Source of the DNA: an uncultured Rhodobiaceae bacterium
GTDB taxonomy: Bacteria; Pseudomonadota; Alphaproteobacteria; Rhizobiales; TMED25
Length of the DNA: 64,000 nucleotides
Assembly (NCBI GenBank): GCA_913045225.1
Contig: CAJWPC010000001.1
Span: 79,128-143,127 of the forward strand
Reading direction: 5' to 3'
The translations under genes and the position numbers were made by a program. Position 1 is the first letter of the stretch. Each line of letters opens with the position of its first letter. Below the pieces are notes generated by a model, which saw nothing but the letters and a program-made list of their open reading frames with translations, ran no database searches and had not been told where the DNA came from. Positions 3,749 to 62,802 of this stretch are shown here, in pieces.

Positions 3749-4750
3749 ATGATGTCCATCAAGAATTATGTAAATAATCTGTCTGATGAAGACCTAAAAA
3801 GAATATATAAAAAAATGCTCATGATCAGAAAGTGTGAAGAGCATTTGGGAGAGGCCACAAAAAATGGAGCCTTTCCAGGTGCTGTTCATCTTTATATTGG
3901 TCAAGAGGCAATCGCGGTACCGTTGTGTGATCAGTTGAATGACTCTGATTGGATATCGAGTACACATAGGGGCCATGGACATTTCATCGCAAAAGGTGGC
4001 GACGTAAAAAAAATGATGGCTGAAATTTACGGAAAGTCGACGGGAATATGTGGGGGTAAAGGTGGCTCTATGCATGTTGCTGATTTCAAAAAGGGAATAA
4101 TTGGAGCAAATGGTGTTGTTGCAGGCGGTATGGGATTAGCTGTAGGTGCAGCCCTGGCATCCAAAATGGATGGTAACGGAGCCGTTTCAATAATTTTTTT
4201 TGGGGATGGTGCAGCAAATCAGGGCGTTTTAATGGAGGCCATGAATATATGTTCATTGTGGAACTTACCAATGATATTTATGTGTGAAAATAACCAATAT
4301 TCTGAGTTTACTCACACATCGGAGGTAACTTCTGGAAAGATTGTTGATAGGGCTGAACCTTTTGGTATTCCAAAATATGAAGTTGATGGAAATAACGCTG
4401 TTGATGTGTGGCAAGCTGCCTATCAGGCAGTTCAGAGGGGGAGAAATGATGAGGGCCCATCATTTATTGAAGCGCATACATACAGGCAACGTGGGCATGT
4501 TGAATTTGAATACACATTTTTGTCACGAACTTACCGAGATCAGAGCGAGGTTGAGTTATGGAAAACAAATGACAAAGACCCGATATTGAGGCTTGAGTCA
4601 TACTTTATAGAACATAGTAAATATTCTGGAGATGATATTGAAAAAATTCAGAAGGAGGTTCAGGACGAAGTTGATGATGCAGTAAAATTTGCAATTGAAA
4701 GCCCAGAGCCAGAAATTTCCAGTGCTATGGATCATATGATTGAGAGATAA
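3749..4750 (+). CDS. ThDP-dependent dehydrogenase E1 alpha subunit (AcoA/PdhA-like)
   Basis: HLYIGQEA, THRGHGH, GKGGSMH, GDGAANQG...ENNQY ThDP motif, TYRQRGH. Confidence 0.93.
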   Translation: MMSIKNYVNNLSDEDLKRIYKKMLMIRKCEEHLGEATKNGAFPGAVHLYIGQEAIAVPLCDQLNDSDWISSTHRGHGHFIAKGGDVKKMMAEIYGKSTGICGGKGGSMHVADFKKGIIGANGVVAGGMGLAVGAALASKMDGNGAVSIIFFGDGAANQGVLMEAMNICSLWNLPMIFMCENNQYSEFTHTSEVTSGKIVDRAEPFGIPKYEVDGNNAVDVWQAAYQAVQRGRNDEGPSFIEAHTYRQRGHVEFEYTFLSRTYRDQSEVELWKTNDKDPILRLESYFIEHSKYSGDDIEKIQKEVQDEVDDAVKFAIESPEPEISSAMDHMIER

Positions 4751-35509: not shown

Positions 35510-37023
<1,514 letters not shown>

Positions 37024-37025
<2 letters not shown>

Positions 37026-37061
37026 AAAAAACTGGACGCTAGGGCAGAGTCCAGTTTTTTT
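37024..37061. terminator. Bidirectional Rho-independent terminator
   Basis: AAAAAAAACTGGAC-gctagggcaga-GTCCAGTTTTTTT: perfect stem with A/T tails on both sides, between convergent aatA and lsrB. Confidence 0.9.
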
Positions 37062-37120
37062 GTGATGTGCAAGCGTATATGTTAATTGGGAGGTATCATA
37101 TACAATATGAGCAATTTAAC
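37024..37120 (-). ncRNA. Candidate AbcR-like (alpha-r15-type) small RNA
   Basis: About 97 nt. 5' hairpin exposing CCUCC(CA) anti-SD, 3' intrinsic terminator, directly downstream of lsrB/vtlR as AbcR1/2 are in Rhizobiaceae. Confidence 0.55.
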
Positions 37121-37180
37121 GCAATTATCTATGCAAATCTATACATAATAATGCAAAATAGATATGCATTTTTTGCAATA

Positions 37181-38062
37181 CTAAAATGCCCACTCTTTCC
37201 CTTTTTCAATAATAAATTCCCTGAAAACTGCGATTCTTTTTGAATTCCTTCTTTCTTCAGCATAGGTTAGATAGGTATCAATTTCTGGGAGTTTTGCATT
37301 GAAAGCTATTCTGACTAAATTATCATCCTGACCAACAAGATAATCCGGAAGCATTGCAATCCCAATACTGTTGGAGACCGCCATGTGTAATCCTTTTATA
37401 TTACCTATTTTTAAAATTGGTTTTATCTTATATTCTTTAGTTATATTCTCCAGCCAATTTATCTCTTTCAGATAATCGGGTGCCCTCCCATATGTGACAA
37501 TTTTATGGTTCGTAAGGTCACTTATCTTACTTGGGGTACCATACTCATCAAGATACTTTGGCGATGCGTATAAATGAAAATGAACAGTAAATAGTTTGCG
37601 TTGAATCAGATCTAATTGTTGTGGCTTATGAAACCTGATTGCGATATCGGCTTCCCTCATCCCAACATCAAGCTCTGCATCAGTTAACCTTAGCTCTAGA
37701 TTAATTTCAGGAAATTTTGAAGTAAAATCTTTAAGGCGAGGCGTAAGCCAATTAGTGCCTAGACCAACTGTTGTGGTAACAGATAAATCTCCCGATGGCC
37801 TTTCTTTGCTATCTATTAACTCAAATTCAGCTTCCTTAATTATATCAACAATATTTCTTGTCCGCTTATAGAGTAGTTCGCCCTGCTCGGTAAGTATAAG
37901 TCCTCGAGGGTGCCTGTGAAATAGCGGCATACCAACCTCATATTCGAGATTAGAAACCTGCCTACTAATAGCAGATTGACTTGTGTTAATTTCCTCACTT
38001 GCATGAGAAAAGCTACCAGCATCTGCAACAATATGAAAAATTCTTAACCTATCCCAGTCCAT
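37181..38062 (-). CDS. lsrB: LysR-type regulator, LsrB/VtlR orthologue
   Basis: DWDRLRIFH...GSF......SQSAISRQVS.LE...LFHRH.RGL.LTEQGE, VTTTVGLG; overlaps the trxB 3' end as in Rhizobiales. Confidence 0.85.
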   Translation of the reverse strand: MDWDRLRIFHIVADAGSFSHASEEINTSQSAISRQVSNLEYEVGMPLFHRHPRGLILTEQGELLYKRTRNIVDIIKEAEFELIDSKERPSGDLSVTTTVGLGTNWLTPRLKDFTSKFPEINLELRLTDAELDVGMREADIAIRFHKPQQLDLIQRKLFTVHFHLYASPKYLDEYGTPSKISDLTNHKIVTYGRAPDYLKEINWLENITKEYKIKPILKIGNIKGLHMAVSNSIGIAMLPDYLVGQDDNLVRIAFNAKLPEIDTYLTYAEERRNSKRIAVFREFIIEKGKEWAF

Positions 38063-39002
38063 TGGTATTCTTGTTTGCTAAAAAATTTTCAGCGTCCAGG
38101 GCGGCCATGCAGCCCATTCCTGCGGCAGTAACAGCTTGACGATATTTTTCATCGGTCACATCACCAGCAGCAAAGACACCAGATATTGAGGTTTTTGTAG
38201 ACCCAGGAGTGGTGAGAATGTATCCATTTTTGGTTTCTAAATCTTTTGTGAATAGTTCAGTTGCAGGTTTGTGACCAATTGCAATAAAAACACCGTCTGT
38301 TTCGAAGTGTCCTGTTTTATTTGATTTTGTGTTTCGTATATTTATGCCAGTCACAGAATTTGGATTTTTAGTACCCGTAATCTCATCTACAACACTATCC
38401 CAGATTACATTTATTTTCTTATTCTTGAATAATCTGTCTTCGAGTATCTTTTCGCATCGCAATTCATCTCGTCTATGTATGAGGGTTACTTTACTTGCAA
38501 AATTTGTTAAAAATAACGCCTCTTCAACAGCTGTATTGCCACCCCCAACGACAACTACAGTCTTATCTTTATAAAAGAACCCGTCACAGGTTGCGCAGGC
38601 TGAAACTCCAAAACCCTTGAATTTTTCCTCGGTTTCCAAACCAAGCCATTTTGCTTGGGCTCCAGTACATATAATAAGACTTTCGGCAATATACTCAGTG
38701 CCGGAGTCACCATTCATTTGGAATGGGTATTTAGATAGATTGCATAGATTGATGTGGTCATTTATCACTTCTACACCTGTGTTCTTGGCCTGCAGTCTCA
38801 TCTGATCCATGAGCCAAGGGCCCTGTATAATATCTGCAAAACCTGGGTAGTTTTCCACGTCGGTAGTTATTGTAAGTTGACCGCCGGGTTGGATACCTTC
38901 AATTAGAATTGGTTCTAGCATTGCGCGCGCAGCATAAATTGCAGCAGTGTATCCAGCTGGACCTGAACCAATTATTATTACTTTAGATTTTTTTTCAGCC
39001 AT
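38049..39002 (-). CDS. trxB: Thioredoxin reductase
   Basis: GSGPAG, GGQL..TT.VENYPG, CATCDG, GGGNTA, AAGDV.D..YRQA. Confidence 0.98.
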   Translation of the reverse strand: MAEKKSKVIIIGSGPAGYTAAIYAARAMLEPILIEGIQPGGQLTITTDVENYPGFADIIQGPWLMDQMRLQAKNTGVEVINDHINLCNLSKYPFQMNGDSGTEYIAESLIICTGAQAKWLGLETEEKFKGFGVSACATCDGFFYKDKTVVVVGGGNTAVEEALFLTNFASKVTLIHRRDELRCEKILEDRLFKNKKINVIWDSVVDEITGTKNPNSVTGINIRNTKSNKTGHFETDGVFIAIGHKPATELFTKDLETKNGYILTTPGSTKTSISGVFAAGDVTDEKYRQAVTAAGMGCMAALDAENFLANKNTNGLG

Positions 39003-48848: not shown

Positions 48849-48925
48849 GGGCGATTAGCTCAGTTGGTTAGAGCCCTCCGCTCATAACGGAGTGGTCCCA
48901 GGTTCGAGTCCTGGATCGCCCACCA
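48849..48925 (+). tRNA. tRNA with CAT anticodon, most likely tRNA-Ile2 (lysidine)
   Basis: Acceptor GGGCGAT/ATCGCCC, D arm AGCTCAGTTGGTTAGAG, anticodon arm CTCCG-CTCATAA-CGGAG, T arm GGTTCGAGTCC, encoded CCA. Lacks the fMet GGG/CCC stem; sits downstream of rpoD like E. coli ileX. Confidence 0.93.
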
Positions 48926-62447: not shown

Positions 62448-62793
62448 ATGCTAGATGGCTGGATGATCGCTATTTATTAGAGGAAAGTCCGGGCTCCACA
62501 GAGGAACAGTGCCGGATAACATCCGGCGGGGGTGACCCTAGGGAAAGTGCAACAGAAAATATACCGCCATGATTAAATGGTAAGGGTGAAATGGTGTGGT
62601 AAGAGCACACCGCAATGGTGGTAACATCATTGGCAGTGTAAACCCCACTGGGAGCAAGACCAAATAGAGATGGAAATATGTCCTCTGCATTCTGCCATCT
62701 GGGTAGGTCGCTAGACTCAATGAGTAATCATAGAGCGAGATGAATGATCATCGTCAAATTGACACAGAACCCGGCTTATAGGCCATCTAGCAT
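62448..62793 (+). ncRNA. rnpB: RNase P RNA, bacterial type A
   Basis: GAGGAAAGTCCGGGCTCC, GGAAAGTGCAACAGAAA, GGTAAGGGTGAAA, GGAGCAAG, ACAGAACCCGGCTTA; P1 ATGCTAGATGGC/GCCATCTAGCAT; P2 GATGATC/GATCATC. Confidence 0.97.
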
Positions 62794-62802
62794 TAGAATT
62801 TG

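Follow-up and report, generated by a model that had tools for sequence, protein, structure and literature searches.

A conserved non-coding element downstream of lsrB in the marine OCS116 clade is a probable reduced AbcR1-type small RNA gene

The locus downstream of lsrB

The DNA analysed here, referred to as the window, is a 64,000-nucleotide (nt) stretch from an uncultured Rhodobiaceae bacterium (contig CAJWPC010000001.1 of assembly GCA_913045225.1) with a GC content of ~35%, and our subject is the 155-nt spacer that follows a LysR-type regulator gene on its minus strand. This spacer holds an element that is conserved, non-coding and real. Its kind is already well known, and to judge from sequence and surroundings its form here is most likely a reduced small RNA (sRNA) of the AbcR1 type. 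In rhizobia, Agrobacterium and Brucella, AbcR sRNAs repress the synthesis of transporters. A preliminary description of the locus had proposed an AbcR-like sRNA of ~97 nt at this place, and its proposals are considered below with the results that bear on them.

On the minus strand the genes run from greA through trxB to the LysR gene and then into the spacer, with the 3′ end of trxB and the start of the LysR gene sharing a 14-nt overlap. The trxB–LysR linkage was seen in 36 of the 83 homologous loci compared. Proteins 81–100% identical to the LysR protein of the window are encoded in marine genomes, assembled from metagenomes or obtained from single cells, that bear the labels OCS116 cluster, Rhizobiales TMED28, Rhodobiaceae or Hyphomicrobiales; the window therefore belongs to a streamlined marine Hyphomicrobiales bacterium of the OCS116 cluster. 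In Rhizobiales, LsrB is recognised by its place in a trxB–lsrB operon (PMC11975290); because the window gene shows both the overlap and the conserved linkage, we treat it as the lsrB/vtlR orthologue, which bears out the name given to this neighbour in the preliminary description. On its other side the spacer is bounded by a convergent aspartate aminotransferase gene (stop codon at 37023–37025, +), found at the same place in the 13 relatives L001–L013 introduced below, and the promoter proposed in the spacer thus drives no protein-coding gene. The features of the locus are listed in Table 1.

Table 1. Features of the lsrB locus in the window
Feature	Positions	Strand	Basis
trxB, thioredoxin-disulfide reductase, first gene of the trxB-lsrB operon	38049..39002	−	TIGR01292, 402.9 bits, above cutoff
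lsrB/vtlR-like LysR regulator, 293 amino acids	37181..38062	−	HTH_1 and LysR_substrate domains
TGCA-N5-TGCA dyad (LysR box of T-N11-A type)	37165..37177	−	sequence; kept in L001–L010
LsrB/VtlR-type box GCATATCTATTTT (GCAT-N3-TA-N3-T)	37155..37167	−	position fixed in all 14 sequences
−35-like hexamer TAGATT	37136..37141	−	exactly 13 nt 3′ of the box
−10-like hexamer TAAATT	37113..37118	−	exactly 17 nt 3′ of the −35-like hexamer
Predicted transcription start (inferred, within ~2 nt)	37106	−	seventh base past the −10-like hexamer
Seed hairpin, 7-bp stem GUAUAUG (37103–37097)/CAUAUAC (37081–37075), 15-nt loop AUACCUCCCAAUUAA	37075..37103	−	minimum free energy and centroid folds, RNAalifold
CUCCCA, AbcR motif M1 (anti-Shine-Dalgarno), unpaired in the loop	37087..37092	−	sequence
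A-rich linker GCUUGCACAUCAC plus A7	37055..37074	−	single-stranded in the centroid fold apart from A7
Intrinsic terminator, stem-loop 37054–37032 plus U8 37031–37024	37024..37054	−	fold
Aspartate aminotransferase, convergent	35814..37025	+	NF004769, E = 3e-166, 553 bits, below the 617-bit cutoff

Fold and conservation of the element

The minus-strand RNA contains a seed hairpin, a linker and a terminator, and the fold of the 111-nt region is more stable than that of shuffled sequences (z = −4.2). Within the hairpin loop, CCUCCC (37093–37088, −) overlaps CUCCCA (37092–37087). The minus-strand sequence quoted in the preliminary description (37120–37081, CCUCC included) is present as given. The U-tailed terminator it described is also real: CUGGAC (37054–37049) pairs with GUCCAG (37037–37032), U8 follows, and relatives show compensatory changes. 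Since the A7 run of the linker (37061–37055) lies upstream of this stem, the terminator is bidirectional and is shared with the convergent aminotransferase gene. The string CCTCCC itself occurs 9 times in the window against 11.8 expected, i.e., not above chance, so that its significance must come from comparison with relatives only.

For this comparison we used the region 3′ of the LysR gene from 13 species-level relatives (L001–L013; LysR 98–72% identical), to which the metagenome loci L132, L172, L186 and L205–L211 were added; L132, L172 and L186 were the only relevant loci among the matches listed in a metagenome pattern scan anchored on the promoter boxes, the other matches being mostly due to chance. 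The module is kept in at least 14 related genomes. At four-fold degenerate sites of lsrB, identity to the window is 0.33–0.40 in L004 and L006–L012, 0.49 in L005 and 0.24 in L013, and for most of these relatives this divergence is close to saturation for the base composition. Despite this saturation, the hairpin arms are 100% identical in L001–L010. The CUCCC core of the loop is invariant in all relatives, some of which read CUCCCU in place of CUCCCA, and the TGCA boxes, both promoter-like hexamers and the U-run are kept as well. The 9–13 nt directly 5′ of the hairpin show an identity of only 0.33–0.67 and vary in length. The linker is 90–100% identical within the subclade of the window and is replaced by (C)AUACCCAAAA in L006–L013. 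Among the relatives compared, no conserved small open reading frame (ORF) was found on either strand of the spacer. These patterns support the view that the spacer downstream of lsrB is non-coding sequence under strong purifying selection.

The RNAalifold consensus of 15 sequences recovered the same 7-bp hairpin and terminator, with compensatory changes at six pairs, mostly in the terminator stem. In the seed hairpin, pairing is preserved through U:A to C:G in L012 and L013a, G:C to A:U in L013a, and U:A to U.G in L002, the last of which preserves pairing on the minus-strand RNA only. Between identical arms, the loop ranges in length from 13 to 17 nt. When a covariance model was trained on the clade, it found one copy in the window and also matched L013, which lay outside the training set (E = 2e-5).

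The preliminary description had drawn a different hairpin, with an outer stem GUUAAAUUG/CAAUUAAC and an inner stem UCAUA/UAUGA. It is not the minimum free energy structure in the window and is so in only 2 of 12 relatives, it places CCUCC in an internal loop, and its 5′ arm (37120–37104) falls in the least conserved part of the spacer; we rejected it as the conserved structure. Its leader–loop duplexes are somewhat more stable in cognate than in non-cognate combinations (−2.4 vs −1.75 kcal/mol; permutation p ~0.03, with kinship among the sequences ignored), and L001 carries one apparently compensatory change. As a minor alternative, the same fold might still form if transcription started further upstream.

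Regulator box, promoter and predicted start

The spacer opens with TGCA repeats. The TGCA dyad begins 4 nt past the lsrB stop codon and overlaps the upstream end of the LsrB/VtlR-type box. The published VtlR/LsrB box reads GCAT-N3-TG-N3-T (PMC7486931), a sequence to which the boxes of L006 and L007 are identical. At the S. meliloti promoter PabcR1, the box occupies −61 to −49 upstream of a sigma-70 promoter, with tandem T-N11-A motifs nearby (PMC8844928).

Two promoter-like hexamers follow the box of the window at fixed distances. The −35 position reads TAGAnn or TATAnn at the same offset in 14 of 14 sequences and in L210, and the −10 position reads TAnnnn in 14 of 14 at 17-nt spacing, its TA being invariant amid variable bases. 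L210 keeps TAGATA-N17-TATATA although its fourth TGCAT repeat is absent. A start at 37106 would put the −10 hexamer at −12 to −7, the −35 hexamer at −35 to −30, with the box spanning −61 to −49, i.e., the geometry of PabcR1; the transcript would then be ~83 nt long, with its 5′ end 3 nt ahead of the hairpin.

This start is better supported than the promoter of the preliminary description and the 97-nt length that went with it. The hexamers named there, TTGCAT (37156–37151) and CATAGA (37133–37128) with N17 between them, do exist, but TTGCAT is a TGCA repeat of the regulator box, and at CATAGA the relatives read CATACA, CATAGC or CATGCT, never with the final T of a −10 element. An alternative promoter offered in the same description, TTGCGT-N18-TATGAT, is not conserved among relatives. 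A simple sigma-70 scan called neither TAGATT/TAAATT nor TTGCAT/CATAGA; a missed call fits a weak, activator-dependent −35.

An additional box-like site of the form GCAT-N8-TGCA, GCATTTTAGTATTGCA, lies at 37174–37189 (−) over the last lsrB codons and the stop, and together with the downstream boxes it makes a run of four or five TGCA repeats; its conservation is partly explained by the coding sequence. Only one other exact match to the LsrB box was found in the window, inside uvrB, a count at chance level.

Relation to known sRNA families

AbcR1 and AbcR2 are encoded in the spacer adjoining lsrB, and AbcR1 needs LsrB (PMC8844928, PMC7486931; for the adjacency of AbcR to lsrB/vtlR see also PMC3712013). 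Motif M1, CUCCCA, lies in the loop of their first hairpin and motif M2, GUUCCC, between hairpins 1 and 2 (PMC5461406); in Agrobacterium, the 5′ hairpin of AbcR1 represses translation by pairing with ribosome-binding sites (PMC3346310, PMC5461406). The window element resembles AbcR1/AbcR2 (RF02345; Sinorhizobium, Agrobacterium, Brucella) in adjoining lsrB/vtlR, in having an LsrB/VtlR-type box ~61–49 nt upstream of what is here a predicted start, in exposing CUCCCA in the loop of its first hairpin, in ending with a Rho-independent terminator, and in belonging to a host of the order Rhizobiales/Hyphomicrobiales.

It also differs from AbcR in several respects. The predicted RNA is ~83 nt long with two hairpins, whereas AbcR RNAs have 110–120 nt and three; it lacks M2 and the suhB-like middle hairpin; and its first stem has 7 bp, mostly A/U, in place of a long, interrupted, GC-rich stem. 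AbcR genes form a tandem pair, whereas a single copy is present in the part of the genome seen. The flanking gene encodes an aminotransferase and not an ArsR regulator, the adjacent regulator contains no cysteines, and the element is not detected by the family covariance model.

On this last point, searches with Rfam 15 at gathering thresholds gave no match in the spacer, and the models ar15, ar14 and suhB gave none even at E ≤ 10 on 401 nt (36900–37300); ar15 also had no match in L011–L031 and L081–L083. The gathering scores are 40 bits for ar15 (RF02345) and 58.8 bits for ar14 (RF02344). As a positive control, we used Smr15A, the alpha-r15 copy on S. meliloti pSymA, located by the probe coordinates in PMC3346310, which scored 94.2 bits against ar15. 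The expectation that covariance models may miss the element thus held. The ar15 consensus consists of a long first hairpin with the loop cUuuucCUcccagUu, a single-stranded GUUCCCCUCU, a second hairpin and a terminator, and the window sequence ACCUCCCAAUU agrees with this consensus in 10 of 12 loop positions.

Two further families offer points of comparison. Like the NfeR1/alpha-r14 "cuckoo" sRNAs (RF02344), the element has an anti-Shine-Dalgarno C-rich loop motif, a terminator U-tail that largely pairs with upstream A residues and, by our prediction, activation by LsrB. Alpha-r14 RNAs differ in having two or three CCUCCUCCC loops in ~120 nt, whereas the window has a single CCUCCCA loop and no ar14 score; NfeR1 is not encoded beside S. 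meliloti lsrB. MmgR/suhB (RF00519, in the same clan CL00108 as ar15) is likewise alphaproteobacterial and has a CUCCC-type single-stranded motif followed by a terminator. The window gave no suhB match, and suhB similarity concerns the middle hairpin, which is lacking in the OCS116 RNA; AbcR shares its middle hairpin and terminator with suhB (PMC3346310).

Interpretation and alternative explanations

Our interpretation is that the element is probably an independent sRNA gene of ~83 nt (~37106 to 37024, −), the positional orthologue of AbcR1 (alpha-r15) reduced to its 5′ module and terminator. The preliminary proposal of an AbcR-like sRNA 3′ of lsrB is partly supported, by the conservation of the spacer, the LsrB/VtlR-type box, the promoter-like hexamers, the M1 hairpin and the terminator; M2 and the three-hairpin body are absent.

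Several observations weigh against this interpretation. With regard to family, M2 GUUCCC is absent from 37106–37024, the middle hairpin of the AbcR body is missing, ar15 gives no match and the clade model finds nothing in GC-rich relatives; hence it is synteny and architecture, not statistics, that tie the element to canonical AbcR. The seed hairpin is weak (−3.3 kcal/mol at 37 °C), the conservation of its stem lies more in sequence identity than in covariation, and independent compensatory events are few, maybe from only one or two lineages. The U-tail of the terminator can pair with the upstream A7 and would therefore be less available to Hfq. On the side of regulation, the box has one mismatch to the published box (TA for TG), no terminator was found between the lsrB stop (37181) and the element, such that the RNA might also be made within the trxB–lsrB 3′ untranslated region (UTR) or be processed from it, and redox-active cysteines of the C144/C273 type were not found in the LysR of the window. 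As for targets, the 64-kb window contains no gene for an ATP-binding cassette (ABC) transporter binding protein, and duplex energies of the sRNA with local start regions are within background.

One alternative keeps the same pairing mechanism and disputes only descent from AbcR: an LsrB-driven anti-Shine-Dalgarno sRNA that is a reduced alpha-r14/NfeR1 or that evolved its C-rich loop independently. LsrB is needed for the transcription of NfeR1 and acts there through a box at −72 to −57 (PMC10746234), and the sRNAs 3′ of lsrB in L020 and L016, the first of which carries CCUCCUCCC, match ar14 below threshold and do not match ar15. In addition, the tandem CUCCC-loop hairpins of L013 are an ar14-like repeat architecture, and ar15 never scores on the window or its relatives. 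We nevertheless consider this alternative unlikely, as the window has no ar14 match at any threshold, its loop shares CCUCCCA-UU with the ar15 consensus and lacks CCUCCUCCC, and its box, at −61 to −49, is placed as at PabcR1 and not as at PnfeR1. Exact GUUCCC and suhB-like 3′ modules typical of ar15 occur in L081 and L082, and in S. meliloti Smr14C2 lies ~31 kb from the Smr15C/Smr16C AbcR pair that flanks lsrB (PMC3346310; PMC8844928). What favours ar15/AbcR over ar14/NfeR1 is position and loop motif, not a model score. Because two distant loci match ar14 and NfeR1 is activated by LsrB, the family label is less secure than the functional class.

It is also rather unlikely that the hairpin and terminator merely form the 3′ UTR of the trxB–lsrB operon, as a stabiliser or a processed sRNA, with the TGCA boxes serving LsrB autoregulation or roadblocking. 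With no terminator after the lsrB stop, operon transcripts must traverse the element to reach the shared terminator; LsrB autoregulates trxB–lsrB in Agrobacterium (PMC11975290); and the simple sigma-70 scan called no promoter here. Against this, the 17-nt hexamer spacing and the box offset are the same in all 14 sequences and L210, with an invariant TA amid variable bases, and the position of the box reproduces the activator geometry of PabcR1. Boxes placed past the stop would be odd for autoregulation, given that the operon promoter lies ~1.9 kb upstream. The 3′-UTR mode and the own-promoter mode are not mutually exclusive.

A third possibility, that the spacer has no RNA function and combines a bidirectional terminator with DNA-level protein sites (the TGCA dyads and a GTATATG/CATATAC palindrome), appears improbable. 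The terminator is clearly bidirectional, the hairpin arms do not covary freely and CCTCCC is not over-represented in the window. The variable arm spacing of 13–17 nt argues against a dimeric DNA operator of fixed spacing and suits an RNA hairpin, the U.G wobble of L002 is meaningful on the minus-strand RNA only, the C-rich loop core is invariant and strand-specific, and distant relatives keep a CUCCC-loop hairpin with wholly different stems. That the spacer encodes a small protein is hardly credible: the 13-codon plus-strand ORF MSNLTQLSMQIYT raised in the preliminary description does exist, with GGAGG as a potential ribosome-binding site 13 nt upstream of its start, but it is not conserved (present only in the window and L005, absent in L001, L002, L003 and L007–L010) and lies in the most variable stretch, 3′ of the plus-strand terminator, while minus-strand micro-ORFs from the hairpin AUG vary in frame and length (5 codons in the window vs 15–19 in L006 and L008–L010).

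Proposed mechanism and targets

If the element is a reduced AbcR1-type sRNA gene, we infer that it would work as follows. LsrB/VtlR produced from the upstream operon would bind the GCAT-N3-TA-N3-T box at about −61 to −49 together with the flanking TGCA dyads and activate the weak sigma-70 promoter TAGATT-N17-TAAATT. The transcript would form the short hairpin whose loop presents CCUCCCA, and this anti-Shine-Dalgarno loop could pair with the ribosome-binding sites of some mRNAs, those with Shine-Dalgarno sequences of the GGGAGG type. By analogy with AbcR, such mRNAs would code for transport or binding proteins; the pairing would keep them from being translated and might lead to their decay. Only a few genes of the window have GGAGG-type Shine-Dalgarno sequences, and no hfq gene is present in its 64 kb.

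The regulator itself departs from the model described in rhizobia. LsrB of A. tumefaciens (C144/C273) and of S. meliloti is described as a thiol-based redox sensor. The LysR of the window contains no cysteine, nor do any of the 13 homologues of the OCS116 clade or those of Kaustia, Rhodoligotrophos and Aestuariivirga (L081–L083). These LsrB homologues must therefore sense something else or act constitutively. Most trxB-linked LysR homologues outside the model rhizobia, including those of L016–L019, likewise lack any cysteine. In Agrobacterium, LsrB autoregulates the trxB–lsrB operon (PMC11975290).

Directly 5′ of the aminotransferase gene lies a 100-amino-acid gene of the ABM family (antibiotic biosynthesis monooxygenase-like; 35510–35812, +). 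Very few sizeable ORFs of the window share its upstream GGAGG or GGGAG Shine-Dalgarno motif, and the duplex predicted between it and the sRNA loop (−12 kcal/mol) does not exceed background.

Related elements at other lsrB loci

We further compared the sequences 3′ of trxB-linked LysR genes beyond the closest relatives. In the 450 nt 3′ of such genes, the density of hairpins with a CUCCC loop is 2.78 per kb, compared with 0.23 per kb elsewhere. Some loci have forms intermediate between the OCS116 element and canonical AbcR, which speaks for the AbcR reading. L012 and L013 (LysR 72% identical) retain a second hairpin with an M2-like UUCCCAU loop. In L081–L083 (Kaustia mangrovi, Rhodoligotrophos and Aestuariivirga; trxB-linked LysR 55–59% identical), the corresponding hairpin is GC-rich with a C-rich loop, UUACUCCCUCCCC in L081 (Kaustia) and L082 (Rhodoligotrophos), and only these two loci have a box-like GCAT motif ahead of it. 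Both also carry the M2 sequence GUUCCC inside the loop of the next hairpin, followed by weak suhB-type matches. Exact GUUCCC was found in L014, L081 and L082, and weak suhB matches in the GC-rich lsrB-adjacent sRNAs of L020, L028, L081 and L082; partial suhB homology has been described for alpha-r15 (PMC3346310).

Matches to ar14 below threshold were obtained in L020 (3989–4107, 34.2 bits, E = 0.012) and L016 (3960–4101, 26.9 bits). These GC-rich metagenome-assembled genomes (MAGs) give full-length matches to ar14 and not to ar15, and L020 carries CCUCCUCCC. This hints that the locus may be occupied by an ar14-like sRNA in some genomes and by an ar15-like one in others.

Within the comparison set, L013 has two tandem hairpins of the first type at 3979–4044, with loops CAUAUCUCCCAAUUA and ACCUCCCUA. 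In L012, L013 and L205, an additional AU hairpin, AUGAAAUAAAUUUUCAU, separates the −10-like hexamer from the first CUCCC hairpin (~3950–3975 in L012 and L205), and a further, third hairpin has the UUCCCAU loop.

At greater distance, L025, L036, L038, L055, L058 and L065 are MAGs labelled Rhodospirillaceae or Alphaproteobacteria whose trxB-linked LysR is 45–50% identical to that of the window. These six loci contain either a near-identical small hairpin, YACGU[CUCCCAG]ACGUG, or a more extended fold that carries this motif, ~170–200 nt 3′ of the LysR stop. Downstream of the hairpin, AAGCCUCCCU follows in the loci read, and in L025 a terminator comes next.

Such sequences suggest that a module of lsrB and an anti-Shine-Dalgarno sRNA may be distributed more widely than the Rhizobiales range described for alpha-r15. 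A broader idea, which we offer tentatively and regard as somewhat doubtful, is that the lsrB-adjacent sRNA is an ancient module of trxB–lsrB loci beyond the Rhizobiales alpha-r15 lineages, of which the OCS116 form would be the minimal core. Streamlining would then have spared the core but eliminated M2, the middle hairpin and the tandem paralogue and, in the regulator, even the redox cysteines. If so, the OCS116 RNA would be the smallest functional AbcR-type riboregulator, and LsrB there would sense something other than thiol oxidation.

Significance

OCS116 is an abundant, uncultured, genome-streamlined marine clade, and such genomes keep very few regulators. A regulator–sRNA pair retained under these conditions therefore marks a control circuit under selection. 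In a literature search, we found no paper describing regulatory RNAs of OCS116. If the element is indeed an AbcR1 orthologue, the 5′ M1 hairpin would be the indispensable part of the family, with M2 and the middle hairpin dispensable, and the LsrB–AbcR circuit, known from rhizobia and pathogens that live with hosts, would reach free-living oligotrophs as well. The element also shows that the Rfam ar15 model has a blind spot in AT-rich genomes.

Other RNA genes in the window

Elsewhere in the window, a class A RNase P RNA gene (62451–62794, +; 321 bits) and a tRNA-Met (CAU) gene (48849–48925, +) were detected, and these were the only Rfam and ARAGORN matches.

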